From an uncultured Saprospiraceae bacterium (GTDB lineage: Bacteria; Bacteroidota; Bacteroidia; Chitinophagales; Saprospiraceae), in assembly GCA_937928045.1 (NCBI GenBank), contig CALFWO010000005.1:162726-226725 (forward strand): a DNA stretch of 64,000 bases, written 5' to 3'. Below the pieces are notes generated by a model. The model saw nothing but the letters and a program-made list of their open reading frames with translations, was not told where the DNA came from and searched no databases. How positions within the stretch are numbered: the first letter of the stretch is position 1; each line of letters opens with the position of its first letter. Shown in pieces: positions 19,701-43,377 of this stretch. Made by a program: the position numbers and the translations under genes.

Positions 19701-22578
19701 AAAATGCGACAACTGTACCTTCGTCATCAACTGTAATGTTGTATCCTGGTTCATTATTGCCACAAAAGTTATTGAATAATGCGACAGTTGTATTTGAAGG
19801 ACTGGTTAAAGAAATAGCCAAATCGCCCATCCAACTATGGCTTACAACTAAGTTGGTTACATTGAGATCATTGATTGTAACTCCATTAGAAATATTGATT
19901 GTGGAGGTTATCGTGTTGTCATTAATATTTATAGGAATATCCGTTGATGAGTAATTAGTAACGATGTCATCTCCTACTCCAGATAAACAAGATTGATAGA
20001 CAAATTGATCGGGGCCAGTATAAGAAGTGGTTGGGGTATAAGAATATGAACCATCATTGTTTATTGTTACTTGACCGTTTGTGGGAGCGTTAATAGGGGT
20101 AGTAGTGATTGTTCCCCCGCCAGAATCATTGGTAGATAAATTTCCTGCAACCGCTGTATTGATATTGGTTAGATTAAAGTCATCACCTGCATATGGAGCA
20201 TTAATGGCATCTCCATTAAGGTCTGGAATAACATCGATTACAACTACTGCTCCAGCACAAGCTTGAGGAATTCCGTCATCACATACTTCATACGAAAATT
20301 GATCTTGACCTGCAAAACCTTGATTTGGATTATAGGTAAAATCTCCGTTTGCGGCTAATGAAACTGTACCACTAGTTGGATGAGATGTCGGAGTAATATT
20401 TACTATTAGATTGTTACCATCGACATCTGCATCATTTGCTAATACATTAGCTGAAATTGAAACGTCTATGTTTGTGATCCCTTCATCCGCATTTGCAATG
20501 ACTTCATTGTTTGAAAATGATGGAGCGGAAGTAACGGTAATGACTACTGTCGCTGTATCACAGGCGGAAGGAGTTCCATTATCACAAATTATATATTCAA
20601 ATTGATCTTGGCCGACGTAGTCAGAGCTAGGATTATAGGTGTAAGATCCATCGTTAGACAAGTTTACGGAACCATTTGCTGGGTCAACATGGGGAGTTAA
20701 AGTCAAACTGATAACATCTCCTTCATTGTCAACATCATTCGTTAGAACATTTCCGCTAATCCCTTGATTGATTAAAGTATTATTGTCGTCGTTAATTGCG
20801 GTAATTCCATTAATGAAAATAGTCACCCAAGTATCATCGCAAATTGGCGGAGTACTGGCATCGCAGACTTCATACCAGAAACGATCCTCTCCTGTAAATC
20901 CGGAGGCAGGCGTATAAGTAATCTCGCCGGTAATTGAATTTATAGATGTCATTCCATTTTCTGGAAGTGTAGTAACATTTACTGAACCTTGTACAAGACC
21001 TGTACCTTGATCATTGGTTAGTACATCTATTAGGACAGCTGTGTTCAAAGCAGTGTGCGATGTATCTTCTGCTGCAGTCGGAACGCACCACGGAATGTGA
21101 ATATTTGCAGCAGTGCTGGTATGTGAAATCCACCAAGTGTTGATGGTATTGACATTGCCGTAGTCAAAATTGGTCCAAGAATGGCATGGAGAAGTACAAC
21201 CATCTAATTCAATTTGACTTGCTCCATTTCCTGGCACAAAGGGAATTGATGTATCATCGTAGTATAATTTATCAACAAAAACACTAGATGAAGGCCTTAC
21301 AATATCTATTGAATATCCATCAACTACATACTCTACATCGTATGAAGCATAATGTGTAACTCCTTGTTGTAATTTAAGAAATACATCTACATCAGAACCT
21401 AAATTTACTGCATTCCCAAAACCGTTTAGACCATTCCAAGAAACACATCGTCGATAAGGCGCTTTTTCGCCTGGTAAGGCAGATATACATTCTAAAAGTA
21501 AAACATCTTCTGAGTTGAGATCATATTTTCCTGCTCCGCTTGTACTATTAATATCTAATAATATTTCTACCTGTCCTTCCAGCGATGTTTCAATCCAAAT
21601 ACAAGCTTCATTTTGATTACAAATGTTGACTTCAGGATCTGCAGTGATTGTTCCAAGTGTACCATCTGGATATTCTACTGGATCAGGATCATTAAAGAAT
21701 ATTTTATATTGTGGTGCGACACTATAAGAATCTGGAACCGATTTTCGATCTGCTGCTACATCTCCCGTTGATCCGGTACCTAGTGCATTAAAGGCAATTG
21801 TAAAAAACCAACCTCTAAAACCTGAGTTCGCAAAGTCAATTTTGTTAACAAATCCATCATCTGTATAAGCATACACCACTCCATTGAAGCCGCGATCAAA
21901 ATTACCATATGGTGAAGAACTGGAGTTGATTGTAGGAGTAGTTTTAAAGGCCCAGTTGTAAGACCATAGTCGTCCGTCTATAGCTGCCGGAGTAGCTCCT
22001 GAATTATCCGCAACAGTTATGTCAAAAAATGGAATATCAATTATGGTTGTTGAAATTGCAGCTGCATTATCACTAAATTCTATGTAGTAATCCCCCGCGG
22101 TCATTCCACTAGGGTCAAATATGAAAGGAGAATAACCTCCTGCTCCAGCAACTGGCGCAGGTCCAGCAATGGCATCTGCTCTTGAGTTCACGTTGGCAGA
22201 GCTTGCATCTATTAAGGTAGGTCCGTATACAATCGTACCAGAGGGAGATACAATCCGGAAGTAGTATTCTTGAGTGTAGGAATCTCCCAGATAAGCAAAT
22301 GTATTAGGGTCTAAATTTTCGATTGCTCCAATTGACAATCCTAAGTAAACCAATTCAGTACTAGGGTCCGCAATATGAATAAACATTCTAGAATTAATGG
22401 CTCCACCATATTCAGCAAAAGAACCATAACTCGCATTATTGGTCATTAATTTGGTGTAGTCAGTAGGATTAGGATCTAATTGTTTTGTTCCCTCTGCGAA
22501 TGATGGACTCTTACAAAATAATAAGATTAGGCATAGAAATAGGAATCGAAAATTCTTGGGCAGCAGTTGTAAATGCAT
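16738..22578 (-). CDS. giant secreted multidomain protein (1946 aa): tandem cadherin/VCBS-like domains, proprotein-convertase P-domain, long thrombospondin-type-3 Ca-binding (DxDxDG) repeat tract, T9SS type-A C-terminal domain
   Basis: Signal peptide. About 5 repeats of a ~95-aa cadherin/VCBS-like module (…NDVDNEGDVISLT…GSYTYNPSSDYVGQDQFEYIICDNGTPSACDTATVVITV). P-domain-like segment (VSHSWMGDLAISLTSPSNTTVALFNN…). Dozens of DSDNDGIPD/DLDADNDGIPD motifs. C-terminal IEIYPNPVQGD…GNYFLV tail. Confidence 0.85.
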   Translation of the reverse strand: MHLQLLPKNFRFLFLCLILLFCKSPSFAEGTKQLDPNPTDYTKLMTNNASYGSFAEYGGAINSRMFIHIADPSTELVYLGLSIGAIENLDPNTFAYLGDSYTQEYYFRIVSPSGTIVYGPTLIDASSANVNSRADAIAGPAPVAGAGGYSPFIFDPSGMTAGDYYIEFSDNAAAISTTIIDIPFFDITVADNSGATPAAIDGRLWSYNWAFKTTPTINSSSSPYGNFDRGFNGVVYAYTDDGFVNKIDFANSGFRGWFFTIAFNALGTGSTGDVAADRKSVPDSYSVAPQYKIFFNDPDPVEYPDGTLGTITADPEVNICNQNEACIWIETSLEGQVEILLDINSTSGAGKYDLNSEDVLLLECISALPGEKAPYRRCVSWNGLNGFGNAVNLGSDVDVFLKLQQGVTHYASYDVEYVVDGYSIDIVRPSSSVFVDKLYYDDTSIPFVPGNGASQIELDGCTSPCHSWTNFDYGNVNTINTWWISHTSTAANIHIPWCVPTAAEDTSHTALNTAVLIDVLTNDQGTGLVQGSVNVTTLPENGMTSINSITGEITYTPASGFTGEDRFWYEVCDASTPPICDDTWVTIFINGITAINDDNNTLINQGISGNVLTNDVDNEGDVISLTLTPHVDPANGSVNLSNDGSYTYNPSSDYVGQDQFEYIICDNGTPSACDTATVVITVTSAPSFSNNEVIANADEGITNIDVSISANVLANDADVDGNNLIVNITPTSHPTSGTVSLAANGDFTYNPNQGFAGQDQFSYEVCDDGIPQACAGAVVVIDVIPDLNGDAINAPYAGDDFNLTNINTAVAGNLSTNDSGGGTITTTPINAPTNGQVTINNDGSYSYTPTTSYTGPDQFVYQSCLSGVGDDIVTNYSSTDIPININDNTITSTINISNGVTINDLNVTNLVVSHSWMGDLAISLTSPSNTTVALFNNFCGNNEPGYNITVDDEGTVVAFCSELNSGGIYQALNGLLSIFDGENSAGIWTLTITDNAEGDVGVLNSWGLEFESPNEVCTQATAYLLVLPDPVTDLDEDNDGIPDLKEVFSGDHDDDGTPDYIDPDFCMAVFQGVNGWDCSNGIPDPDFDLDGDGTPNYLDADYPYTIKDSDGDGYYDYLDLDSDNDGIPDLIEAGGTDVNADGLVDSLTDSDNDGLVDLYDDANALNPGVNEGTSLVIADTDNDLVPDFLDLDADNDGIPDLLELGGVDADGNGIVDNLTDSDTDGLVDLYDPSNESNAGSNEGIPHYLTGADSGDGTPIEICIGNCSPDGDGLPAHLDLDADDDGILDIIEAGGTDSNNDGMISDPVGTNGYSNGLDPADGGNPYFVATEDDPADLNTRPEYSSISGTGDSDEDDVLDFLDVDSDNDGIYDIYEAQETGNFLAAIGMDDDNDGIDNAFDKDSPLVTSNGFDPYNHDTEDQPDYLDTDSDNDNITDWQEAWDGLYDGDSRADNISDPSGDDADGDGLLDIYDNSDNDPSIFSWEGNPAEDINGNNGIDAGTLFSDNLLLLLPENGGDNLNQPDYRDQLIECGTQSAYYAISEMGGSLVSYSYNSASGKHEANANTGAIRATTYCSNEGWFYYYNPLEPTNILFAIKYNESNLGTIPINELVDYIELRLDADVSDRIVYNGNNALLVMARDWHVVFKREAEPNAMFDIKYYFDPAEFVALMDESNGLVGYGNPQLKWFKADQGGNISFNPSDITADSIPNMVDISGLATASVNMASGEAAIDTTVSGNGKNYIGFEGLPGFSGGTAVIAMSAVLPTELSEFTANEKDCEATLEWFTSSEENFNHFIIEKSRDGINFNPTDIIDSKGAISGASYSWNDHAINGNSYYRLKMVDQDGSIAYSKIASVLFDCEEPRSSIEIYPNPVQGDNASLHVICESPRNNPEFLIIDIMGQTLLRHRTNKEKGQISTKIDIGYLPPGNYFLVSRDLGLEFSKMFLKTE

Positions 22579-23500: not shown

Positions 23501-23573
23501 AGTGCTGTAACTCAATGGCTAGAGTACTCGACTGTCTATCGAGAAGTTGCGGGTTCAAATCCCGTCAGCACTG
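23501..23573 (+). tRNA. tRNA-Asp (anticodon GTC)
   Basis: Manual fold: acceptor AGTGCTG/CAGCACT, D-stem ACTC/GAGT, anticodon stem CTCGA/TCGAG with loop CTGTCTA, T-arm GCGGG-TTCAAAT-CCCGT, 73 nt. Non-G first base and U37 are slightly unusual. Confidence 0.7.
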
Positions 23574-23578
23574 CAGAT

Positions 23579-23650
23579 GCTCCGTTGGTATAATGGCTAG
23601 TACGTCCGACTTTCCATCGGGAGATAAGGGTTCGATTCCCTTACGGAGTA
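23579..23650 (+). tRNA. tRNA-Glu (anticodon TTC), CCA encoded
   Basis: Acceptor GCTCCGT/ACGGAGT (G1·U72). Anticodon stem TCCGA/TCGGG with loop CTTTCCA. T-arm AAGGG-TTCGATT-CCCTT. Discriminator A followed by genomic CCA. C37 is atypical. Confidence 0.65.
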
Positions 23651-23745
23651 CCAAATATGCATTGAAATAATCCTATGTTGTAATGGTAGCAAATCAAAAT
23701 TTGACTTTGACAGAATAGGTTTGATTCCTGTTAGGATTTCAACAA

Positions 23746-23819
23746 GCGGGGGTGGCGAAAATGGCAAACGCGTCTGATTTAGAATCAGATTTCTGAGGGT
23801 TCGAATCCCTCTCCCTGTA
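23746..23819 (+). tRNA. non-canonical tRNA-like gene: Leu-type anticodon loop (UU-UAG-AA) but class-I (short variable arm) architecture and G·U-rich acceptor; possible pseudo-tRNA
   Basis: Acceptor GCGGGGG/TCCCTGT pairs only with three G·U wobbles. D-arm has a 3-bp stem and 11-nt loop (class-II-like). Anticodon stem TCTGA/TCAGA with loop TTTAGAA. Variable region is only TTTCT. Canonical T-arm GAGGG-TTCGAAT-CCCTC. Confidence 0.4.
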
Positions 23820-23837
23820 CAATTTTAAATTCAATAT

Positions 23838-23911
23838 GTTGACTATAGTTTAATTGGCGAGAATACCTCAATGTGAATGAGGAGGATCGGGTTCGAATCC
23901 CGCTAGTCAAC
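23838..23911 (+). tRNA. tRNA-His (anticodon GTG) with encoded G-1 and genomic CCA
   Basis: 8-bp acceptor including G-1:C73 (G-TTGACTA / TAGTCAA-C). Anticodon stem CCTCA/TGAGG with loop ATGTGAA. T-loop TTCGAAT. CCA follows the discriminator. Confidence 0.75.
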
Positions 23912-23925
23912 CCATTTTTTAACCA

Positions 23926-31451: not shown

Positions 31452-32549
31452 TTATTTGGAATTTGAAAATACCAATTTCAATTGTTCGAGTAACTGACCA
31501 CCTCCAGAAAGAGATAGCGTGCCAATGTTTTCAGCAATTTTCTCTACATATTCCATCTCTTTAAGCTTATAAAGCATCTCATTATTCTCCATGAGCTTTG
31601 CAGTATTCATCAAACTTCTAGTGGAAGCAGTTTCTTCTCTGCGCATGATCACATTAGCTTGAGCCTTTTTTTCTGCAATCAATACTTGATTCAAAATCTC
31701 CTTCATGTCTCCTGGAAGAATAATGTCCTTTATTCCCGCAGCAAAAAGTGAAATACCCATTTCTGACGATGCAATTTTAACAAAGTCCATTACGTAATTT
31801 CCAGCTTTAGACTTGTTTGCCAATAGTTCATCTAAGGTAAGTTGCCCAACGTATTCGCGAAGACCTAATTGGATCAATGAATACAATTGTTTGGTCACCT
31901 CTTTAGTATCAATTAGGGCTTTTTCAATATTGACCAATTGATATTGCGCTTGAAAGTTAATTCTAATATTTGCTTTATCCTTGGTCAATAATTCTTGGCC
32001 AGAAATGTCAATGACTTGCTTTCTCAAATCTCCCTTTAAAACCTTCACGGCTTTTGAACCCTTCCAATAATGGTAGATACCGGCTTCTATTGTTTTAACA
32101 AATTTTCCATCAATGAACAAAAGTCCTTTTTCATAAGACTCCACAGTTTCAACTGAGCAGTGTTGTTTCATCGAATAGGACTGAAGTAATTTTCTGCTTA
32201 CAGCTGCAGGAATTTCAACTTCATCCATATTGTAAATGAATGTCTTGATATCCAAAACATCTTTCCAGTAAACGTAAATTCCAGCAGTCAATATTTTACT
32301 GAAAATCCCACGAGTGAATTGTAGAGCAATTTGATTGTCCTTTACTTCAACAACATCCACCAGAGTTTGTAACTTAGGATGCTGAAGCAATAGTTCAATA
32401 GCAGGATCTTCTAAGGGTAAAGTCATAAATTTAATCACAACTTTGTATCCCCAGCCAATCCAGTAGCGACCTTCTGTATAAACATCGTACAATGCACCAC
32501 GCTTATATACCAATGCCACTTGATAGGCATTTACATGTAATCTTTTCAT
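31452..32549 (-). CDS. SPFH/band-7 (slipin-like) domain protein with duplicated N-terminal module
   Basis: C-terminal half shows the band-7 signature (…GIKDIILPGDMKEILNQVLIAEKKAQANVIMRREETA…). N-terminal half has two related modules (TAGIYVYWKD… / EAGIYHYWKG…). No obvious membrane anchor. Confidence 0.7.
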   Translation of the reverse strand: MKRLHVNAYQVALVYKRGALYDVYTEGRYWIGWGYKVVIKFMTLPLEDPAIELLLQHPKLQTLVDVVEVKDNQIALQFTRGIFSKILTAGIYVYWKDVLDIKTFIYNMDEVEIPAAVSRKLLQSYSMKQHCSVETVESYEKGLLFIDGKFVKTIEAGIYHYWKGSKAVKVLKGDLRKQVIDISGQELLTKDKANIRINFQAQYQLVNIEKALIDTKEVTKQLYSLIQLGLREYVGQLTLDELLANKSKAGNYVMDFVKIASSEMGISLFAAGIKDIILPGDMKEILNQVLIAEKKAQANVIMRREETASTRSLMNTAKLMENNEMLYKLKEMEYVEKIAENIGTLSLSGGGQLLEQLKLVFSNSK

Positions 32550-32894
32550 GATTCGTATGTGATTTATAGGTTTAAAAAAAAACTTGTTTCACTTTTTGCC
32601 TGGATATTATTTCCCTTTTAGGGCAATATTTTGTCAGGCATTTAAAAAAAAATTATCGAGCCAAAATTCAAATTCTGACACCTGTGGAATTTCTTTTAAG
32701 TCAGTTGATTTGAATTTTCAAATTGAATTTGAGCCTCAGGAACCTATTCAATAAAAATTTTCAAAAACAACATGGCGGTATCCAAAAAATTCAGACAATT
32801 GTTGAATTTCAAAAATTGCAAGCAATTTCATTTTAGAAAATTGGCTCGACAAACTGAGATCATTTTTGTGAGTGATCTGCTCGTTAAATGGAGT

Positions 32895-33035
32895 GGAAGT
32901 CCATTGCTCTACCAACTGAGCTACATCGTCTCTACGATGACGGGAATCGAACCCGCGCTTTCGAATTCCTACGTTCTAACCGGACTGAACTAAATGCTCT
33001 TTGAGCATTGGAGGAGTCGAACCTCCGACCTTAGG
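32895..33035 (-). other. block of scrambled tRNA-like modules (tRNA-Gly(TCC)-like 5' portion, Asp-like D-arm, two canonical T-arms) that do not assemble into canonical tRNAs
   Basis: Minus strand reads GGAGG-TTCGACT-CCTCC | AATGCTC-aaa-GAGCATT | TA-GTTC-AGTCCGGTTA-GAAC | …| GCGGG-TTCGATT-CCCGT | CATCGT-agag-ACGATG | TA-GCTC-AGTTGGTA-GAGC-A-ATGGA-CTTCCAC-TCCAT… Each 3'-acceptor-like strand is immediately hairpinned onto the following 5'-acceptor strand. The Gly-like unit lacks a downstream T-arm and the Asp-like unit lacks an anticodon arm. Confidence 0.4.
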
Positions 33036-33405
33036 ATTATATTGAACATTTTGAGTGTTCTGGCAGTCTCACCTCGTTTTCCATCAGAATATGTTGACTT
33101 ATTAGCCACACACTTCAGTGCTATACAGAAACACTAGACGCGGATGGAGGAACAAAAGCGTAAACTTTCTTTATGTATTTTAATAGCGCTGAAATTTTTT
33201 GAAAGAGCGCTTCGAAAGGGTTCGGGACGACTTGTTGAAGTTAATTTATTTGTTTTTGAACCTGGTCTTCACAATAAAAATTCATTTTACTATGAAACTA
33301 GCGTCACACCGTTGGAAAAACTTGTTTTCTCCAACACAAATTTCAATAAACTTCAACGGTAGGTGCATAGCACCACCTTTCAACAAATTTCAACTGACAT
33401 TTTAA

Positions 33406-33951
33406 TCAGTAGGATTTCAAAAGCAGCTTAGTGGGCTCCCCCTTTTTCGGAAGAGCCCCTTTCTTCGCTTTCTTGCACTTCTGCTTCAATCGTTTCACCT
33501 CGCCATTGAAATAATCGTAATCAAATTGGCCTGCAGAAAGTAAACGTCCTCTTTTGTTTTCTTTGATGGCTTCTTTGATTTTTCCCTTGGCTTCCAGCAC
33601 TGTTGCTTTTCGCTTGATCATAACCAATTTCGGCATTCCAAGTTTGGTCATTCCTTTATCGATTAGTGAATTTGCTTTGTCCAGTTCTCCCATCCATATT
33701 AACAATAAACTATAGAATTTATAGGTGTCAACATAGTTAGGATCTTCAACTAAAGCTTGTTCAAAGCAGTGCTTGGCTTCTGAGAATCTTTTCAATTTTT
33801 CCATGAGTAAACGACCCATCAGGCAATTAGATGCTGGATGCATTTCATCGTAACTCAAAGCATAATTCAAAGACTCTACAGTTTGTTCTACATCATAGGC
33901 ATAGTTATCCGATGCTTTCAAGAAGTACTGATCTGCTAAAGTTAAACTCAT
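33406..33951 (-). CDS. tetratricopeptide-repeat protein
   Basis: 181 aa with TPR-like helices (…AKHCFEQALVEDPNYVDTYKFYSLLLIWMGELDKANSLIDKG…). Basic C-terminal tail. Confidence 0.5.
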   Translation of the reverse strand: MSLTLADQYFLKASDNYAYDVEQTVESLNYALSYDEMHPASNCLMGRLLMEKLKRFSEAKHCFEQALVEDPNYVDTYKFYSLLLIWMGELDKANSLIDKGMTKLGMPKLVMIKRKATVLEAKGKIKEAIKENKRGRLLSAGQFDYDYFNGEVKRLKQKCKKAKKGALPKKGEPTKLLLKSY

Positions 33952-34920: not shown

Positions 34921-37900
34921 ATGGACTCAAACAAATTCTTTGAAGGATGTAAAGTCTTTATGACTTTGTTGATATTCCTATGTCTTAGCATCATCAAAGT
35001 TGAGTGTCAATCAATCGAAAACGGTTGTAATGCAGCAAGTTTTGGTGTTGATGCTGATCAATATGCGAATAGTAATTCATTTGGTCAAAATGCTAACGAT
35101 AATAATTATTCGGATGATTGGTTTTTTAATCCAGCAGTGAGTAATGGTTTGGGTATTGGAGTTATTGACGTATCAAATGCCGAGAATCTTCAGCAATCTT
35201 TGCAATCAGGTGATAATCTTTCATTAATCTACGACATGTCGATTCCATTCAATACTGTACATCAAGGCGTACGGCTATTGGATGCTATATATGGACGAGA
35301 CTTTTACGGAGGTACACAGAATACAGACTACACCTCTTATATTCAAGCCAGTAAAAATGGGGAGGATCCAGCCATTTGGGATACGGGACCTGCTAATGTC
35401 ACTCCCAAGAATGATCTTATTGATTGCTTTGCTCACTTAAGACGGGATGGAATCAATGGTGATGATGACCTATGGTTATTTGGAGGATTTTCTAGAATCT
35501 CAAATATTGGAAGTAGTTATTTGGATATGGAACTGTATTCGAAAGATATACAATATACTCCCTCCTCTGGTTTTACTTCTGCTGGAAATGATGAAGGTCA
35601 TACTGCTTGGACATTTGATTCAAACGGAAATTTGACTAGAACAGGAGATATTGTTGTTTCCTATAATTTTTCTACAAACGGGGCACCAGAAATTGAATTA
35701 AGAATTTGGGTGGCACAATCGGATTTTCAGAATACTTCACCGACTACTTTTAGTTTTGGTTCAGAATTCGACGGAGGTACGAATAACTCTAATTTTGGTT
35801 ATGCAGATATCCTTCCTCCAAATAACGGAATTTATTCTTGTGGTTTAGGAAATCCTTCAACCACATTTGCCCCGCCTTGGGGGACATTAAACTCTAACGG
35901 AAACTATAGCTACAACTATGAGGGAGGTCAATTTGCAGAATTCGGATTGAATTTAAATGCCTTTGGAATTGATCCATCAGTAGTTCTGTCTTCCGGTGCT
36001 GGTATTTCTTGTGATATTCCTTTTAGCGCAGTTCTTTTTAAAGCTAGGGCTTCGCAATCATTCACCGCTCAGTTAAAAGATTTTGCTGGGCCATATCCTT
36101 TTGAAATCCCATTAACCATTCCTTCCGACATTGTAGGAGATACCATTGATTGCATTAATGCCGCAGTAACCCTTGGTCCAGAAATTGTGATTCCAGACGC
36201 ATCTTATATCTGGTCAACTAGCGATGGAAATATTATAGGGACAACTGATAGTGCATATATTTTAGTAGATCAGCCGGGTACCTATTCATTGGATGCATCA
36301 TCTGCTCCGGGATGTCTGGTAAACACTTCTTCTTTTTATGTTCCGGAATTATATAACTATCCTACAGCAGATATACAAGCAGATACTATTTTTGATTGTG
36401 GAGTCTCTGCTAGTCTAACTGCATGGCCGGCGGGGCATGTCTATGAATGGTCTGGCCCATTTAATTTTCAATCTGATCAGCAACAAATTAGTGTTCAAGA
36501 TGAAGGAATGTATATAGTTTCCGTAATGGATCCAATTTCACAATGTATGGCTCTGGATTCCATATATCTTCCCGGTGGACCTTGTCAAAATATAGATTTA
36601 TCAGAATTGCCTGGAGACGGAAATCAAGTGATTATAATTGATAATGAGCCACCGATGGTAAATTGGCCCGATGATATTACGCTTTCTTGTTTAGATGATT
36701 TTCTAAATCTTTCATTAACAGGAACGCTTGGTCAAATAACAGATAATTGTCCTGAAAATTTACCTGCTCCTTTTTATTTGGATTTGTCTTCAAACGGAAT
36801 TTGTTTAGGCGAAGTTGTTTATAATAGACTTTGGTATGTTACTGATTTCTGCGGAAACTTAGCTTCCCATTCGCAGGTAATAACCTTGGTAGATACTATT
36901 CCTCCTTTTTTCATTGCACCAAATGATGTGACAATTGATTGTTCGATAGATGTAAATGATCTAGGTGATCTTGGAGATGCTACAGGAGAGTATGATGATT
37001 GTGATTTTTCTATCGGAGAAGCATTTTATCAAGATAGTATTGCTAGTGGAGTTTCTTGTACAGGAAATGATGTAATATATAGAGTTTGGACATTAGTTGA
37101 CGGTTGTGGAAATGAAAATATACAAATTCAAACTATTAATTTTGCAGATAGTGAGGCCCCAACATTTACTGTTCCAAATAATATTACTATTTCTTGTTCT
37201 GATGACGCGAATGATTTAGGGTTGACTGGAACTATTGAGGACACTTTGGATAACTGCAGTAATACACTTTTGACTATTAATTATTGGGATCAGATTGTTG
37301 TAGATTCGAATTGTGTATCAAATTATCTGATCTATAGGAGTTGGTTGGTTACAGATGGTTGCGGGAATGATAGCCTAGCTATTCAAGAAATAACAATCGA
37401 AGATATAGCGGCTCCTACATTTACTGCGCCAGAAGATATTACAGTTGCTTGTGATGTCGCTGAAAGTGATTTAATAACTTTAGGAGATGTCATCAATGAA
37501 TATGATGATTGTACTGCTAGTATTGCCAATGCTACTTACACAGATGTTATCATTGCTAGTGGTCCATGTCCTTCAACAAAAACGATAGAACGTACTTGGT
37601 CTCTTTCGGATGATTGTGGAAATATTACTTCTATTATTCAATTGATTGAATTTGAAGATACCAGCAATCCAACGTTTACAGTACCTGAAGACGTTACCAT
37701 AGAGTGTCATGAAGATCCTGCTAATCTATTATTGACTGGGAATGTATTTGATGAAGCAGATAATTGTAGTGAAAATGGATTAGAAGCCACTTATATTGAC
37801 GACGTTACTTCCGGAATACCTTGCAATGGAAGTACTATTATTCAAAGGACCTGGACACTGGTTGATGATTGTGGAAATACCTCATCTGCAATTCAGCAAA

Positions 37901-40900
37901 TAACCTTGGAAGATAATACTCCGCCATCTTTTTCTATGGTGGCTGTAGATCCACAAGTTTCTTGTGATGTCGTAATTCCTACACCTCAGATTGGTGTTGA
38001 TCTTTTTATCACGGATGCTTGCGATACTAGCTTGAACATTTCCTTTTATGAAGAACAGACTAATATTACATGCCCCGATGTTTATGTTTTAAGAAGGGTA
38101 TGGATTGCTGAAGATAATTGCGGGAATATTGATTCATTGGTGCAAGAAATAATGGTTGAGGATTCGGGTGATCCAATTATTTTAGTCTTTCCTCCTGATT
38201 TGACAGTTTCTTGTGATTCAATAATTCCTCCAGGAGGAGCTGTTGTAGATGATAACTGTAGTTCGTCTATTACTGTAAACGTCAATGACTCTATAGTCGA
38301 TGGATCATGTGATTTTAATTATGCTATAATTAGAATTTGGTCATGGGAAGATGATTGTGGAAATGTTAATACAGCAGAACAAACAATTACAGTTGTTGAT
38401 GAAAATAGCCCTAATTTTATTCCACCTTCAGATACTTTGATTGGATGTGATGCTAACTTGTCAGATATAAATCAAACTGGATCTATTTTAAATCCCATAG
38501 ACAATTGTGATCCAACTGTTTTAAATACAACTTATCGCGATTCCGTTTTGAATGGATATCCATGCGAAGGTTCCCAAAGAATAATTAGGATATGGATGGT
38601 GTCGGACACCTGTGGAAATGAAAATGAACATGTACAGGTTATCGACATGATTGATACTGTTTCTCCTACTTGGACATTACCTTCAGATATAACAATTACC
38701 TGTGAAACCGACTTGGCAGATCTTTCAATAACAGGTAACGTAGTTTCTATTGATGACAATTGTGATACGAGTCTTGATTTGCCGACCTATACAGATTCTA
38801 TTGTTCAAGATACATCTTGTTTAAATAGTTCAATTATTTATAGAAACTGGTCTGTTTCAGACGCATGTGGAAACACGATTTCAGGAATTCAAACAATCGT
38901 AATCTCAGATACAATTGCTCCATCATTTACTGTTCCTTCAGACATTACACTAGATTGTTCTGAAAATGTTAATGATTTAAATTTAACAGGATTTGTCATT
39001 GATGAAAGTGATAATTGTCAATCTATAATCGGAGATCCAATCTATATGGACTCAGTTGTTGTTGATCAATCTTGCAGCGGGAATTCGGTAATATATAGAA
39101 ATTGGATTTTAGAGGATGCTTGTGGAAATTCCATTAGACAAGTTCAACTGATTGTAATTCAGGATACCATTGCTCCCACTTTCATAACTCCCAATGACGT
39201 TACATTAGACTGCTCTGAAGATATAACAGACTTGTCAATTACTGGAAGTGTTACTGCAGTTCTTGATAATTGTTCTCCATTTTCTATTGTTTCTTCTCAT
39301 AGAGATAGTCTTGTTGCAAATGCAGGATGCGAAGGTCAATTCACTGTTATTCGGATTTGGACAGTACAGGATATGTGCGGGAATAGTAGTGAAGCGTGGC
39401 AACATATTTATCTGGTTGACAATACTCCTCCATTTTTCGTAGTACCCCCGGATATTACCCTTGATTGTGATGCCGACGTGTCGAATGTAACGCTTACCGG
39501 TTTTCCAGATAGTTCCTTGGTGGATAATTGTTCTTCATTAAATTTGAATATAAGTTATGTTGATTTAATTCGAGATTTAGGAAAATGTGGAGCAACTAGA
39601 AATGTAGTTAGAACTTGGCTAGCAGTAGACGATTGTGGAAATCAATTCTCTGCCATTCAAAACATTTCTTTAATTGATACAATTGCTCCAGTATTTATTG
39701 CACCACCGACGATTGTTATTTCATGTACTGATGATCCTAGTGATTTAACAATAACTGGCGAGGTAGATACTATGCAGATTGCAGAAGCTTGTGGTATTAA
39801 CGATGTCACTATTTATTATGTGGATTCTATTAGTCTGCTGAATAATTGCAGCTCGAACTATGAACTTTTGAGAACATGGTATTTAATCGATGATTGTGAT
39901 AATCAATCATCTGCTGTTCAAGTCATTTCCATTGAAGACCAAATTGGCCCAACTTTTTCTGCACCTGATGATATTACAATTGATTGTGATTTGGATATTA
40001 ATGAATTGATTATTACCGGAGTTCCAGATTCTATTCAAGATGAATGTTCTATTAATTTTTCAACACCGACTTATAGAGATAGTATTGTTGACCAGGGTAG
40101 TTGTATCGTTGAAGTAATTTATAGGACTTGGGAAGTTGTAGATGAATGTGGAAATATTTCCAGAGAAATTCAAACCATAACACTTCAGGATACAATTCAA
40201 CCTGTGTTTTTCTCACCTGCTGACACAACGCTTCATTGTTCACAAGATCCATTAGATTTTTCAATTACTGGACTTCCTTTCATGCCGGATGATAATTGTG
40301 ATAATAATCTAGGACAGATTATGTTTAGCGATAGTTTAGTTGTAAGTGATTCCTGCGCAATACATCGTGCGCTATATAGAACATGGTCTCTTTCTGATCA
40401 ATGTAACAATCTTGCATCTTATTTACAGATCATTTATTTGTTGGATACCCTTGGGCCAAGTTTTACAGTGCCTCAAGATGTGACATTGAATTGTGAAGAA
40501 AATTTAGATAATTTGTCCATTACTGGAAATGTGGCCAATGAATTTTTTAACTGCGAAAATCAAGTTGGATTAACTACTTACCAAGATAGTTTAGTAGTCT
40601 CAAGTAATTGTAACGAAATAATTGTACATCGACTTTGGAACTTATCAAATAATTGCGGCTGGGATACTAGCCAAGTTCAATTAATAACTTTGATAGATAC
40701 ATTGGCTCCTACATTTATTAACCAACCCGCTGATTTGACTTTATCATGCGGTCAAGCACTTCCAGTATTCACTCCAAATGTCATAGATGCTTGTTCATCA
40801 AATCCTATCATATTATCAAGTTTGGACACTTTGGCAGGTGATTGTTTTAATGAAATAAATATTGTAAGAACATGGATGGCCACAGACAGTTGTGAAAATG

Positions 40901-43377
40901 CTGACAGCATTCAACAGCAAATTCTTGTCGAGGGATGTGCTCCAGATCTTGAATTGGTTATGCCAAGTTCTTTGACAGAATGTTTTGGCGCTGAAGTTAC
41001 AATGCAAGTTAATATACAGGCTCAAGTCTCGTCAATATTTTTTCAATGGCAAGTATTTTTAAACGGACAATGGACTAACATAGATGGAGCTGATCAGGCA
41101 ATATTCACAATTGCCTCAGCCGAAACAAGTGATGAAGGAGTCTATAGATGTATTGCAGCTGGACAATTATTGGACATTGGTAATGAGGACTGTCAGATAA
41201 TTAGTCCAGAAATTGATCTCTCAATAACATCTCTACCAATTCCGGTTATCTCATACTTAACATTTTGTGAAGGAGATACTATAATTATTAATAATTTAAT
41301 AATTACCACTCCTGGAACTTTTTTGGATACAATAAATATTCAAAATGGTTGTGATAGTCTAATACAGTTGGAGATTGAAATGCTCTTACCAACTTCAAGC
41401 CAAGAATTTATTAATATTTGTGAAGGAGATAGTGTAAATTATAATGGCAATTGGTATTCTCAACCTACTAGTTTTTATGACACACTAACGAATGTATCTG
41501 GTTGCGATAGTATACATGCGATCAACATAGAAGTTGGACAATATACAACTGAGGAAAGATTGGTCCAAGTCTGTTTAGGAGATAGTTTATTTGCCGGTGG
41601 AGCATGGCATTCAGATCCGGGAGTATTTTTAGATACTATTAACGGAAGTAGTGGTTGTGATACGATACTTTCTACAACACTAAGTTTTGTAAATTATATT
41701 GAAAATTCGATAACCTCTAATTTGTGTTCTGGCGATACAATAATTTGGAACGGAAATCTTATTTATTCTGCAGGTGTTTGGAGGGATACAATATTAAACG
41801 CACTAGGGTGTGATACAATCTATATTCATAATGTTGTTGAAATTCCAATAGTCAACACAAACGAAAATTACATTTTATGTGAAGGCGATTCTGTTTTTGT
41901 TGCAGGAAATTGGCGATATGAAAATGGCTTTTTTGTAGAAACGTTTTCGGGCAGTTCTAGATGTGACAGCATAGTCAATAGTACTGTTGTTTTTAACCCA
42001 TCATATAGTTTTCAAGATACCGTTTTATTGTGCTTTGGAGATTCTATAGCGATAGATGGACAAATCATTACTACCGCAGGTAGCTATGCGAATTCTATGA
42101 CTTCAGTTAATGGATGTGATAGTATTATTAATTATGTTGTTGAATTTAATTTGCTAGATACTATTGAATTAGTAGAGCAAATTTGTTCCGGACAATTTTT
42201 TAATTTTAATGGGACTGAACTTTCTATTGCTGGAGACTATCAAGAGATCTTTCAAAATCAGTACGGATGCGATAGTATTGTTAATTTGACTCTTGTAGTA
42301 GAGGATGATATCGAAGTTGAATTAGAATATTTGATTTGTCCTGGAGATTCGGTTGAAATAAATGGATCTTGGTATTTTGCTAATTCAGATCTGTTTTTTG
42401 CAGATCTTGCTCAAAATGGAGGCTGCGATAGCCTGACGAATGTATCTGTTATTCTGGCTGAGGTTTATCAAGATACAAGTAGATATCAGATATGTCAAGG
42501 AGATAGTATTTCACTTTTTGGCAACTTTTATGCGGTACCAACTGAAATTATTGAAACTTCTCAGTCTGTTGATGGATGTGATAGTAACATTGTTCATATT
42601 TTAGAAATAATAGATGTTACACAATTAATTGTAGATGACGCTTATATCTGTAGAGGTGAAGGCGTAGAACTTTTTGTTGAAGGTGCAGTGGAAGTAGAAT
42701 GGTCCCCTTCGACAGGATTAAGTTGTACAAATTGTCTAAATCCAATCGCTTCACCCAATCAATCTACAACTTATACGGTATCATCCAGTTCATGTTTAGG
42801 GGAATCAGTTGAACAAGAAATAACTGTATATGTATATGAATTGCCAACCGTAAGTATTTTGGGCAATGCAAATGTTACCCCTGGTGATACACTGGAATTG
42901 ACTTATGAGGTATCCGACACCACTGCGCAATTAATGTGGTTAGATGCGCAAGGAGATACACTTTGTAATGATAATTGCCCAGATACACTTTTTGTTATTG
43001 CAGACTACAATTCAATATATACTATAGCAGCAATCGATGAAGATGGATGTAGAGCTGAGGATGAAATAGTAGTTCGAATTAATGATAAATGTGAAGATGC
43101 CAAATTGTTCTTTCCAAATTTTATTACGCCAAATGGAGACGGTAAAAACGATGAATATGTTGTGACTTACGAAGATGTAAAGTCTATTGCATTGTTAAGG
43201 ATATTTAATAGATGGGGAGAATTGATTTTTGAGACTTATGATGTAGACAATGACCACTGGGATGGAACATTCAGAGGTGTACCTGTAAACGTTGGGGTTT
43301 ATGTTTATTATTTGGAAGGGGTATGTCTTAATAATGTAGATTTTATAGAAAAAGGAAACATAACGATTATAAGATAA
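34921..43377 (+). CDS. giant SprB-like cell-surface adhesin (2818 aa): ~19 tandem HYR-type ~95-aa domains, ~12 tandem ~38-aa CxGDS…GCDS modules, Ig-like domain, T9SS type-B C-terminal domain
   Basis: Signal peptide. Repeated unit DTxxPxFxxPxDxTxxCxxxxxDLxxTGxxxxxDNCxx…YxDSxxxxxCxGxxxIxRxWxxxDxCGNxxxxxQxIxxxD recurring from ~aa 570-2050. Then repeats such as ICEGDSVNYNGNWYSQPTSFYDTLTNVSGCDSIHAINIEV. C-terminal FFPNFITPNGDGKNDEYVV…IFNRWGELIFE…WDGTFRGVPVNVGVYVYYLEG tail. Confidence 0.85.
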   Translation: MDSNKFFEGCKVFMTLLIFLCLSIIKVECQSIENGCNAASFGVDADQYANSNSFGQNANDNNYSDDWFFNPAVSNGLGIGVIDVSNAENLQQSLQSGDNLSLIYDMSIPFNTVHQGVRLLDAIYGRDFYGGTQNTDYTSYIQASKNGEDPAIWDTGPANVTPKNDLIDCFAHLRRDGINGDDDLWLFGGFSRISNIGSSYLDMELYSKDIQYTPSSGFTSAGNDEGHTAWTFDSNGNLTRTGDIVVSYNFSTNGAPEIELRIWVAQSDFQNTSPTTFSFGSEFDGGTNNSNFGYADILPPNNGIYSCGLGNPSTTFAPPWGTLNSNGNYSYNYEGGQFAEFGLNLNAFGIDPSVVLSSGAGISCDIPFSAVLFKARASQSFTAQLKDFAGPYPFEIPLTIPSDIVGDTIDCINAAVTLGPEIVIPDASYIWSTSDGNIIGTTDSAYILVDQPGTYSLDASSAPGCLVNTSSFYVPELYNYPTADIQADTIFDCGVSASLTAWPAGHVYEWSGPFNFQSDQQQISVQDEGMYIVSVMDPISQCMALDSIYLPGGPCQNIDLSELPGDGNQVIIIDNEPPMVNWPDDITLSCLDDFLNLSLTGTLGQITDNCPENLPAPFYLDLSSNGICLGEVVYNRLWYVTDFCGNLASHSQVITLVDTIPPFFIAPNDVTIDCSIDVNDLGDLGDATGEYDDCDFSIGEAFYQDSIASGVSCTGNDVIYRVWTLVDGCGNENIQIQTINFADSEAPTFTVPNNITISCSDDANDLGLTGTIEDTLDNCSNTLLTINYWDQIVVDSNCVSNYLIYRSWLVTDGCGNDSLAIQEITIEDIAAPTFTAPEDITVACDVAESDLITLGDVINEYDDCTASIANATYTDVIIASGPCPSTKTIERTWSLSDDCGNITSIIQLIEFEDTSNPTFTVPEDVTIECHEDPANLLLTGNVFDEADNCSENGLEATYIDDVTSGIPCNGSTIIQRTWTLVDDCGNTSSAIQQITLEDNTPPSFSMVAVDPQVSCDVVIPTPQIGVDLFITDACDTSLNISFYEEQTNITCPDVYVLRRVWIAEDNCGNIDSLVQEIMVEDSGDPIILVFPPDLTVSCDSIIPPGGAVVDDNCSSSITVNVNDSIVDGSCDFNYAIIRIWSWEDDCGNVNTAEQTITVVDENSPNFIPPSDTLIGCDANLSDINQTGSILNPIDNCDPTVLNTTYRDSVLNGYPCEGSQRIIRIWMVSDTCGNENEHVQVIDMIDTVSPTWTLPSDITITCETDLADLSITGNVVSIDDNCDTSLDLPTYTDSIVQDTSCLNSSIIYRNWSVSDACGNTISGIQTIVISDTIAPSFTVPSDITLDCSENVNDLNLTGFVIDESDNCQSIIGDPIYMDSVVVDQSCSGNSVIYRNWILEDACGNSIRQVQLIVIQDTIAPTFITPNDVTLDCSEDITDLSITGSVTAVLDNCSPFSIVSSHRDSLVANAGCEGQFTVIRIWTVQDMCGNSSEAWQHIYLVDNTPPFFVVPPDITLDCDADVSNVTLTGFPDSSLVDNCSSLNLNISYVDLIRDLGKCGATRNVVRTWLAVDDCGNQFSAIQNISLIDTIAPVFIAPPTIVISCTDDPSDLTITGEVDTMQIAEACGINDVTIYYVDSISLLNNCSSNYELLRTWYLIDDCDNQSSAVQVISIEDQIGPTFSAPDDITIDCDLDINELIITGVPDSIQDECSINFSTPTYRDSIVDQGSCIVEVIYRTWEVVDECGNISREIQTITLQDTIQPVFFSPADTTLHCSQDPLDFSITGLPFMPDDNCDNNLGQIMFSDSLVVSDSCAIHRALYRTWSLSDQCNNLASYLQIIYLLDTLGPSFTVPQDVTLNCEENLDNLSITGNVANEFFNCENQVGLTTYQDSLVVSSNCNEIIVHRLWNLSNNCGWDTSQVQLITLIDTLAPTFINQPADLTLSCGQALPVFTPNVIDACSSNPIILSSLDTLAGDCFNEINIVRTWMATDSCENADSIQQQILVEGCAPDLELVMPSSLTECFGAEVTMQVNIQAQVSSIFFQWQVFLNGQWTNIDGADQAIFTIASAETSDEGVYRCIAAGQLLDIGNEDCQIISPEIDLSITSLPIPVISYLTFCEGDTIIINNLIITTPGTFLDTINIQNGCDSLIQLEIEMLLPTSSQEFINICEGDSVNYNGNWYSQPTSFYDTLTNVSGCDSIHAINIEVGQYTTEERLVQVCLGDSLFAGGAWHSDPGVFLDTINGSSGCDTILSTTLSFVNYIENSITSNLCSGDTIIWNGNLIYSAGVWRDTILNALGCDTIYIHNVVEIPIVNTNENYILCEGDSVFVAGNWRYENGFFVETFSGSSRCDSIVNSTVVFNPSYSFQDTVLLCFGDSIAIDGQIITTAGSYANSMTSVNGCDSIINYVVEFNLLDTIELVEQICSGQFFNFNGTELSIAGDYQEIFQNQYGCDSIVNLTLVVEDDIEVELEYLICPGDSVEINGSWYFANSDLFFADLAQNGGCDSLTNVSVILAEVYQDTSRYQICQGDSISLFGNFYAVPTEIIETSQSVDGCDSNIVHILEIIDVTQLIVDDAYICRGEGVELFVEGAVEVEWSPSTGLSCTNCLNPIASPNQSTTYTVSSSSCLGESVEQEITVYVYELPTVSILGNANVTPGDTLELTYEVSDTTAQLMWLDAQGDTLCNDNCPDTLFVIADYNSIYTIAAIDEDGCRAEDEIVVRINDKCEDAKLFFPNFITPNGDGKNDEYVVTYEDVKSIALLRIFNRWGELIFETYDVDNDHWDGTFRGVPVNVGVYVYYLEGVCLNNVDFIEKGNITIIR

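Follow-up and report, generated by a model that had tools for sequence, protein, structure and literature searches.

A slipin-linked structured RNA with tandem tRNA-shaped modules in Bacteroidota, probably a YrlA-type tRNA mimic

The stretch of DNA analysed here (the window) comprises 64,000 nucleotides of contig CALFWO010000005.1 (assembly GCA_937928045.1) of an uncultured Saprospiraceae bacterium. An intergenic gap of 856 bp is flanked by a TPR gene upstream (33406-33951, minus strand) and a slipin gene downstream (31452-32549, minus strand). Within this gap, the initial annotation described a block of scrambled tRNA-like modules at 32895-33035, to be read as permuted tRNA genes or as a scar of recombination. 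What is found there is a conserved structured RNA with two non-decoding, closed-acceptor tRNA-shaped domains, obligatorily linked to the slipin gene and often to RNA-repair genes. The individual tRNA elements that had been listed (Gly(TCC)-type arms, an Asp-like D-arm and two T-arms) are all present on the minus strand exactly where they had been placed. The block is thus real, but its extent was drawn too narrowly: the RNA reaches from about 33138 to 32776, the resulting length of about 360 nucleotides referring to the conserved core and not to mapped transcript ends. Five parts make up this core: a hairpin at the 5' side that closes an invariant loop, a second hairpin of variable sequence, the pair of modules, then an H-type pseudoknot and the invariant motif GGAUACCG. 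Its features and the downstream gene are as follows.

32776-33138, minus strand: conserved RNA core, about 360 nucleotides; the span from GTTTCTGTATAGC (5' motif) to GGATACCG (3' motif) is kept in the syntenic loci L002, L004 and L005 and in 31 full-length two-module members of the family
33115-33138, minus strand: 5' hairpin P1, closing the invariant loop (G)UUUCUGUAUAG(C); helix 1 of RNAalifold
33089-33113, minus strand: variable hairpin H1 with base GUGUGU/ACAUAU and a genome-dependent inner part; helix 2, 96% paired, two-sided changes in 4/6 pairs
33044-33060, minus strand: weakly supported lineage-specific hairpin GAACA-CUCAAAA-UGUUC, anticodon-arm-like, in the window and L002 only
32967-33036, minus strand: tRNA-like module A; module model 52.0 bits, E 9e-12; the minimum free energy (MFE) fold predicts the same domain
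33026-33010, minus strand: T-arm A, GGAGG-TTCGACT-CCTCC
33009-32993, minus strand: acceptor hairpin A, AATGCTC-aaa-GAGCATT, 7 bp, closed by AAA
32990-32973, minus strand: D-arm A, GTTC-AGTCCGGTTA-GAAC (as RNA GUUC-AGUCCGGUUA-GAAC), Asp-like
32957-32966, minus strand: AUUCGAAAGC, joining modules A and B; relatives differ here in both sequence and length
32887-32956, minus strand: tRNA-like module B; module model 63.6 bits, E 9e-15; Rfam YrlA match at 32879-32981; helices 7-9 of the whole-structure test
32956-32940, minus strand: T-arm B, GCGGG-TTCGATT-CCCGT
32939-32924, minus strand: acceptor hairpin B, CATCGT-agag-ACGATG, 6 bp, closed by AGAG
32921-32906, minus strand: D-arm B, GCTC-AGTTGGTA-GAGC (as RNA GCUC-AGUUGGUA-GAGC)
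32905-32887, minus strand: anticodon-like arm AATGGA-CTTCCAC-TCCATT, with TCC in the anticodon position
32858-32883, minus strand: H-type pseudoknot; S1 CGAG (32883-80)/CUC(A) (32872-69), S2 GAUCA (32877-73)/UGAUC (32862-58), A-rich loop 3 CAAAAA
32776-32783, minus strand: invariant 3' motif GGAUACCG, identical in 31/31 aligned full-length members, which were picked for carrying it
31452-32549, minus strand: slipin, a soluble stomatin-like SPFH/Band-7 protein of 365 amino acids; Pfam Band_7, E 2.5e-22

The two tandem tRNA-shaped modules occupy positions 33036-32887, and in both units the T-arm is followed by an acceptor stem closed by a short loop, by U8-A9 and by the D-arm. Module A is closed by a 5-bp helix, UCCUA (33036-32) with UAGGA (32971-32967), and thus corresponds to a cloverleaf opened at the anticodon loop; it has a variable loop of 5 nucleotides (AGGUC) and a G26 in front of UAGGA. 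Module B keeps a complete anticodon-like arm and corresponds to a cloverleaf opened at the variable region. Positions that are universal in tRNA are invariant in the module seed (G53, T54, Psi55, C56, A58 and C61, U8, A14 and A21), and G18/19 are also kept. Since these elbow nucleotides are retained, an L-shaped fold with a normal elbow is expected. The anticodon-like hairpin after the last module usually begins at the canonical offset and keeps the pattern Y32-U33-NNN-R37-A38, while the triplet itself is not conserved (13 triplets among 21 members). The acceptor ends are closed by loops of 2-8 nucleotides, so that there is no free CCA end. The modules cannot decode.

Support for this structure was sought in covariation. 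A single-module covariance model of 53 positions (T-arm, closed acceptor hairpin, D-arm) was built from 40 modules, all of which come from other genomes and none from the window. As a control, junctions of truly adjacent tRNA genes in the window score only 32.5 and 22.8 bits with this model and show no acceptor hairpin; the modules of the RNA are confirmed to lie far beyond chance. The model recovers 164 modules across 98 sources, module counts being approximate. In the alignment of these modules, 97.8% of the cells hold standard pairs, compared to 68.8% in column shuffles (0/500) and 40-51% with slid partners. All six pairs of the acceptor hairpin change on both sides, displaying 4-6 pair types each. 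The initial annotation had noted that each 3'-acceptor-like strand sits before a complementary 5'-acceptor-like strand; the two do pair, and compensatory changes keep this pairing in more than 100 genomes.

As the module alignment was fitted to the model, RNAalifold was also run on a plain MAFFT alignment of the 31 full-length two-module members. It independently predicts P1, the variable hairpin and the helix that closes module A, and for each of the two modules the T-arm, the closed acceptor stem and the D-arm. Of 46 pairs in total, 36 carry compensatory changes; a terminal helix joining the 5' and 3' ends is absent from the prediction on this alignment. With the pseudoknot added, 93.4% of the cells of the whole structure are paired (71.5% in shuffles, 0/500; 40-49% in slid controls). 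Two-sided changes are seen in 44/55 pairs, and the covariation score amounts to 0.646 versus 0.229. The outer pairs of P1 covary (e.g. GC:13 AU:8 UA:7 CG:2) around a loop, UUUCUGUAUAG, that is identical in nearly all members. In module A, the closing helix (helix 3) covaries in 4/4 pairs and the acceptor stem (helix 5) displays two-sided changes in 5/5 pairs. The pseudoknot is 79.5% paired, compared to 64.3% in shuffles (0/500) and 33-49% in slid controls; its S1 covaries (GAAG/CUUC, GGGU/ACCC, GGAG/CUCC), and the family type of S2 is GAUCC/GGAUC. The MFE fold of 291 nucleotides is no more stable than shuffles (z = -0.58), hence single-sequence energy is uninformative and the case rests on covariation. 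A screen with a regular expression found the motif GGAUACCG in 45 loci. Kissing of the invariant 5' loop with this motif was considered and not adopted: at best 5/6 pairs form, a U-to-C change in the L002 loop is uncompensated, and both motifs are otherwise invariant.

The closest slipin homologues (79%, 67% and 58% identity) derive from Saprospiraceae-like metagenome contigs, and 3/3 carry the RNA upstream of slipin. Compensatory changes are visible already among the nearest relatives (GAACA/UGUUC to GAGCA/UGCUC, CGGG/CCCG to CGAG/CUCG). The first of these falls in the lineage-specific hairpin, which reads GAGCA...UGCUC in L002 (one compensatory change) and is missing in L004 and L005. For acceptor hairpin A, the strands are AAUGCUC/GAGCAUU (window), AAUGUCC/GGGCAUU (L002), UCCUGAC/GUCGGGG (L004) and UCCGCCA/UGGCGGA (L005). 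The triplet in the anticodon position, TCC in the window, is replaced by GTT, ATT and CAT in the three nearest relatives.

A scan for the family, with one genome per species, used the pattern GTTTCTGYATARC-N70-100-GGTTCRANTCC, i.e. the 5' motif anchored on the UUUCUGUAUAG loop plus a T-loop. It returned at least 119 loci, nearly all of them in Bacteroidota, and more than 100 homologous loci were recovered. Genera and groups among the matches listed include Flavobacterium, Sphingobacterium, Pedobacter, Chitinophaga, Dokdonia, Tenacibaculum, Emticicia, Saprospiraceae, Carboxylicivirga, and Draconibacterium; outside Bacteroidota, the matches listed contain one Chlorobiota locus and a handful of chance matches at real tRNAs in other phyla. 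Members carry 1, 2 (the majority) or 3 T-loops at a spacing of about 60-70 nucleotides.

That this is not an ordinary tRNA locus, as the initial annotation had stated, is borne out: ARAGORN reports no tRNA or tmRNA within 32.5-33.4 kb, and the modules lie inside a larger conserved RNA. At curated thresholds, the Rfam tRNA model yields a borderline match of 29.9 bits (threshold 29) at 32847-32930 on the minus strand, with the T-arm replaced by a 30-nucleotide insertion. Of about 110 relatives, 5 have a tRNA placed within the RNA by ARAGORN. An identity as tmRNA or permuted tmRNA was discarded (13.9 and 11.4 bits for tmRNA and tmRNA_permuted, threshold 47). Pairing of the 5' acceptor strand of module B with a downstream UUGUCGA, as Rfam tRNA and ARAGORN would have it in the window and L002, was also discarded: it could form in the closest relatives only, the motif is absent family-wide, and the upstream closed hairpin covaries everywhere.

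The notion of a scar from integration or recombination, such as an att site, fares worst. It would make the element functionless debris of tRNA genes or pseudo-tRNA fragments, and it could draw on the presence of tRNA-derived elements and on the tRNA arrays that frequently neighbour the RNA in relatives. Against this stands an architecture shared by more than 100 species-level genomes, in which compensatory substitutions are pervasive, phylum-wide and at a fixed position relative to the same gene. No integrase domain occurs among the window open reading frames (ORFs) scanned, which were those of at least 120 amino acids and, within 28-38 kb, also shorter ones, and no donor-like similarity to the window tRNAs is seen. 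The covariation effectively refutes debris, to which we give practically no credence. Regarding possible donor tRNAs, ARAGORN finds five ordinary tRNAs in the window, at 23501-23914 on the plus strand, and the modules are unlike these beyond the universal T-loop. The five genes (Asp, Glu, Gln, Leu, and His, with 4-18 nucleotides between them) look atypical for housekeeping tRNAs themselves: the Asp gene begins with AGTGCTG, and Rfam scores range from 52 to 67 bits.

A further alternative is circular permutation. Permuted tRNA genes are known in the red alga Cyanidioschyzon merolae and in a few other algae and archaea, and are matured via a circular intermediate by splicing endonuclease and ligase. 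The topology of each unit was recognised correctly: T-arm and 3' acceptor strand, the 3' half, precede the 5' acceptor strand and D-arm that form the 5' half, with a short linker in between, which is a true circular permutation of the cloverleaf. One could imagine permuted or split tRNA genes that are processed by RNase P and RNase Z cuts, and ligated possibly by a neighbouring RtcB, into functional tRNA-like or circular molecules. RtcB is a tRNA-splicing-type ligase and a frequent neighbour in the family, and the acceptor stems have 6-7 bp; the YrlA RNA of M. smegmatis with its 7-bp acceptor stem is cleaved by RNase P and CCA-tailed in vivo (PMC4201824). Permuted tRNA genes yield decoding products, whereas here the anticodons are unconserved (see above), module A has no anticodon loop, and the units belong to a larger bacterial RNA. 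Moreover, the window is devoid of RtcB, and products of RNase P (5'-P, 3'-OH) are not RtcB substrates, which counts against such a pathway. Bacteria are not known to possess the tRNA splicing endonuclease by which algae process permuted tRNAs. A hidden cloverleaf to which module A would contribute the 5' half and module B the 3' half was rejected as well, as complementarity across the modules corresponds to random expectation (6/62 pairs vs 8.4% expected). Taken together, permuted tRNA genes appear very improbable. A single exception to the cross-module result was noted at L004 (3516-3580), where both acceptor hairpins share the 5' strand GTCGGGG, so that these two halves of modules A and B can pair into a near-normal cloverleaf (Rfam tRNA 47.4 bits).

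The genomic neighbourhood was assessed by clustering all ORFs of the loci (about 115). Annotated neighbour clusters are SPFH, WYL, RtcB, TPR, and amidohydrolase. The SPFH/Band-7 gene lies directly downstream and co-oriented in 100/100 loci having it, and is present in 56/59 loci with enough flank. In 27/59 loci with enough flank, slipin is followed by RtcB; divergently upstream, 30/71 loci encode a WYL-WCX-PhyH regulator. From the 5' motif to the slipin start codon, the family median is 561 nucleotides (583 in the window), and the spacer between GGAUACCG and slipin has a median of 210 nucleotides (range 105-740). The Bacteroidota -7 box is not enriched in this spacer (2 observed vs 6.1 +/- 2.5 expected). 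In the window gap, no canonical Bacteroidota promoter (TAnnTTTG) and no predicted intrinsic terminator were found, and a sigma-70 scan returned one weak site, no more than chance. Lack of box enrichment and of a predicted terminator suggests that the RNA is probably the first element of the slipin(-rtcB) operon transcript.

Many members (e.g. L014, L015, L010, and L042) display an upstream box GTTCTTTGA about 100-150 nucleotides 5' of the 5' motif, with TTTG about 21 nucleotides earlier, which could be a promoter or a regulator site beside the divergent WYL gene. These members also have an extra 5' hairpin that is missing in the window lineage, and the window has only CGCTTTTG (33156-33163), about 25 nucleotides upstream of the 5' motif.

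Such an arrangement brings up the main rival explanation, a cis-acting 5' leader of the slipin(-rtcB) operon. In this case the tRNA-like domains would be read out in cis, for example through cleavage by RNase P or through factors that bind or damage tRNA, in order to control downstream expression, instead of acting in trans within a ribonucleoprotein. The constant co-oriented position directly 5' of slipin, at the distance given above, and the spacer without box enrichment or, in the window gap, a predicted terminator are in line with a leader. On the other hand, the length of the spacer is very variable, and the invariant 5' loop and 3' motif resemble binding sites more than an expression platform. 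We regard a leader as possible, though rather unlikely. It is not mutually exclusive with a role in trans: in the closest analogue that has been characterised, the rsr-rtcBA operon also contains the Y RNAs (Wang et al. 2018, bioRxiv 10.1101/312249), so co-transcription would not exclude a trans role.

Arrays of same-strand tRNAs, with up to 18 tRNAs, occur within 1 kb upstream of the RNA in 22/92 loci; from ordinary tRNA gene density we estimate that about 1% of loci would be expected to have such arrays. The excess points to a functional connection of auxiliary tRNA arrays with the RNA-slipin module. The loci concerned include L008, L012, L020, L029, L031, L043, L048, L059, and L061. In Anabaena sp. 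PCC 7120, deletion of the repressor TrcR de-represses the slipin gene alr0740, rtcB and a 26-gene tRNA operon together, and this tRNA operon is induced by translation-targeting antibiotics (PMC10272220). The Anabaena case may be taken as an independent hint that slipin, RtcB and auxiliary tRNAs share one stress response. A further observation concerns L005 (Logan ERR9287630 contig, 1-1557), where a polynucleotide kinase-phosphatase (PNKP) gene (E 1e-51) is located upstream, some 2 kb from the RNA, whereas many loci have RtcB downstream; beside it is a truncated ORF with a weak match to T4 Rnl1-type ligase (E 4e-4, below threshold), with a tRNA-Gln gene in between.

A permissive Rfam scan of the 856-bp gap displays one meaningful match, YrlA (RF02553), at 32879-32981 on the minus strand (39.6 bits, E 4.6e-7). 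The same family matches L002, L004, and L005, in the latter twice in tandem. YrlA RNAs mimic the T-arm, D-arm and acceptor stem of tRNA and are modified by TruB and DusA (Chen et al. 2014, PMC4201824). The slipin-associated RNA shares with YrlA the variable region, T-arm, loop-closed acceptor stem, U8-A9, D-arm and closing "anticodon" stem in the same strand order, the conserved elbow nucleotides, and an RNA-repair neighbourhood with RtcB. It differs in several respects. YrlA has one module, whereas the window RNA has two and the family 1-3; module B of the window has a complete anticodon arm; the window RNA, with its roughly 360 nucleotides, carries an invariant 5' loop, a pseudoknot and a 3' motif of its own; the partner is SPFH/slipin and not rsr (TROVE); and the slipin-associated RNA lacks a conserved Rsr-binding helix with GNCGAAN0-1G.

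These differences bear on the question of whether the element is a bona fide Y RNA, i.e. a YrlA orthologue bound by Ro60/Rsr with rsr located elsewhere in the genome. YrlA is indeed the best Rfam family in the window as well as in relatives (31-43 bits), and GUCGAAUG in L004 fits the published motif of the Rsr module. All scores lie below the Rfam gathering score of 69, however, and published YrlA candidates were limited to those within 4 kb of rsr (PMC4201824). The window reads GUCGAGCC (32850-32843), which deviates from the motif. Among about 120 loci, the motif-like TTGTCGA is confined to the window (also present as duplicate L001), L002 and L004, with stray matches in L073 and L108, and is thus absent from most members. 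Neither a TROVE (Ro60/Rsr) nor an RtcB domain occurs among the 37 window ORFs of at least 120 amino acids, and TROVE is missing from the annotated neighbour clusters of relatives, a 7-locus cluster represented by L111:384-4382 being left unannotated. A Ro-binding Y RNA therefore appears improbable.

A link of Band-7, RtcB and a tRNA-like RNA has been known in outline since 2016. As cited in a later preprint, Burroughs and Aravind (2016) described Band-7/RtcB neighbourhoods with a predicted tRNA-like RNA, with YrlA occasionally beside Band-7, and in that account these predictions were without experimental validation as of 2018 (bioRxiv 10.1101/312249). In the literature searched, we found no experimental study or later description of a Band-7-linked tRNA-like RNA. 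The authors of the 2016 work reportedly named it b7a-tRNA, proposed it as cofactor of an RNA-repair scaffold and are said to have described it as "strongly resembling an authentic tRNA". By these accounts, the present RNA is related to the b7a-tRNA/YrlA-Band-7 prediction. Both are predicted noncoding RNAs beside a Band-7/SPFH gene, and the slipin adjacency in the window fits. The b7a-tRNA has RtcB in its neighbourhood, which holds for part of the relatives and not for the window; it is tRNA-like by description, whereas the window element, compared with it by description only, is no contiguous cloverleaf. As far as can be told, the tandem modules, the extra invariant domains, the near phylum-wide range in Bacteroidota and the frequent tRNA-array neighbours are undescribed. 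No Rfam family covers the slipin-associated RNA.

The slipin encoded next to the RNA matches stomatin, QmcA and HflK in a sequence profile over residues ~129-342, and by eye it displays no hydrophobic membrane segment. An AlphaFold (AF2) model (pLDDT 80) predicts three five-stranded beta-repeats (residues 1-41, 64-107, and 131-174), an SPFH alpha/beta domain, and a helix of 60 residues. In Foldseek, the best E-values for this model belong to the cages of stomatin, HflK/C, prohibitin, and erlin, while the longest alignments are those with major vault protein (MVP), extending over 397-425 columns including the N-terminal repeats (TMq 0.42-0.51, E 1e-9 to 7e-8). As judged from the model, the likeness of slipin and MVP is a resemblance in architecture only and no proof of particle formation.

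The window has about 35% GC and also encodes type IX secretion cargo (CHU_C and Por_Secre_tail), PorP/SprF, and TonB-dependent receptors. A phage origin of the region was discarded, as blastn against a phage collection gave no match and the window genes are those of a Bacteroidota chromosome. Two giant secreted proteins, both type IX secretion cargo typical of Bacteroidota, are unrelated to the RNA: one of 2818 amino acids with HYR-like and CHU_C domains (34921-43377, plus strand), and one of 1946 amino acids with cadherin-like, Big_9, P-domain and Por_Secre_tail regions (16738-22578, minus strand).

Based on this dataset, we hypothesize that the block is the core of a structured noncoding RNA that belongs with the slipin gene, namely a YrlA-type tRNA-mimic RNA of an RNA-repair or quality-control module. 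Judging from the sequence comparisons, we consider this reading probable (about 0.75). Transcription of the slipin(-rtcB) operon would start with the RNA as first element. In each module, the strand enters at the variable-loop side and passes through the T-arm, the loop-closed acceptor, U8-A9 and the D-arm, and the domains should adopt the L-shape by which enzymes recognise tRNA. The invariant parts unrelated to tRNA (5' loop, pseudoknot and GGAUACCG) would bind the slipin oligomer, with the RNA acting as a slipin cofactor. The tRNA mimics could then serve as handles that recruit RtcB, RNase P, CCA-adding and modification enzymes or nucleases to the particle; alternatively, they could be decoys that draw tRNA-targeting toxins to it. 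Such a role would be analogous to that of Y RNA in the system of the rsr-yrlA-rtcBA repair operon, where it tethers Ro60/Rsr to partner enzymes. RNase P may cut the 7-bp acceptor stem of module A, which it reportedly does in YrlA of M. smegmatis.

Several points speak against a YrlA-type RNA of a repair module. The copy in the window is an RNA-slipin core lacking both RtcB and the WYL regulator; its neighbours are the TPR protein and a histidine kinase, the next gene after slipin, and a repair role is therefore not evident locally. Physical contact of RNA and slipin is something that we infer from the invariant gene adjacency alone. Support for the pseudoknot is weaker than that for the modules (76-84% paired), and the YrlA scores are below threshold, as described above. 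Furthermore, the scan pattern demanded the 5' motif and a T-loop, so the counts are biased towards members that resemble the window RNA.

A more far-reaching proposal is suggested by the structural model of slipin. The vault particle consists of major vault protein, vault RNA and the TROVE protein TEP1. Both systems would combine a cage-type protein (tandem beta-repeats, an SPFH shoulder and a long helix) with a small structured noncoding RNA. Soluble slipin might thus form a closed vault-like cage with the RNA as dedicated component, anchored by the UUUCUGUAUAG loop, the pseudoknot and GGAUACCG, in which the 1-3 tRNA mimics would act as bait for damaged tRNAs, repair enzymes or tRNA-cleaving toxins. 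The differences are considerable: bacterial slipin has only about 2-3 repeats in 365 amino acids, its best E-values go to membrane SPFH cages, the system is known here from genes alone, and vault RNAs are not tRNA mimics of the slipin-associated type. We hold this proposal to be doubtful. If true, the slipin-RNA particle would be a bacterial counterpart of the ribonucleoprotein logic of eukaryotic vault and Ro particles, widespread in Bacteroidota.

The family described here is a candidate for a new Rfam family, and accounts for a class of pseudo-tRNA signals in the annotation of Bacteroidota. It is large and easily alignable, and its more than 100 genomes include many cultivable ones (Flavobacterium, Sphingobacterium, Pedobacter, Chitinophaga). 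With an architecture richer than that of YrlA, it makes the purpose of Y-type tRNA mimicry, which in structural terms is well documented, testable in bacterial RNA-repair modules. Questions opened by this RNA are the cytoplasmic role of SPFH cages, the reason why repair systems carry tRNA decoys, and the existence of vault-like ribonucleoproteins in bacteria.

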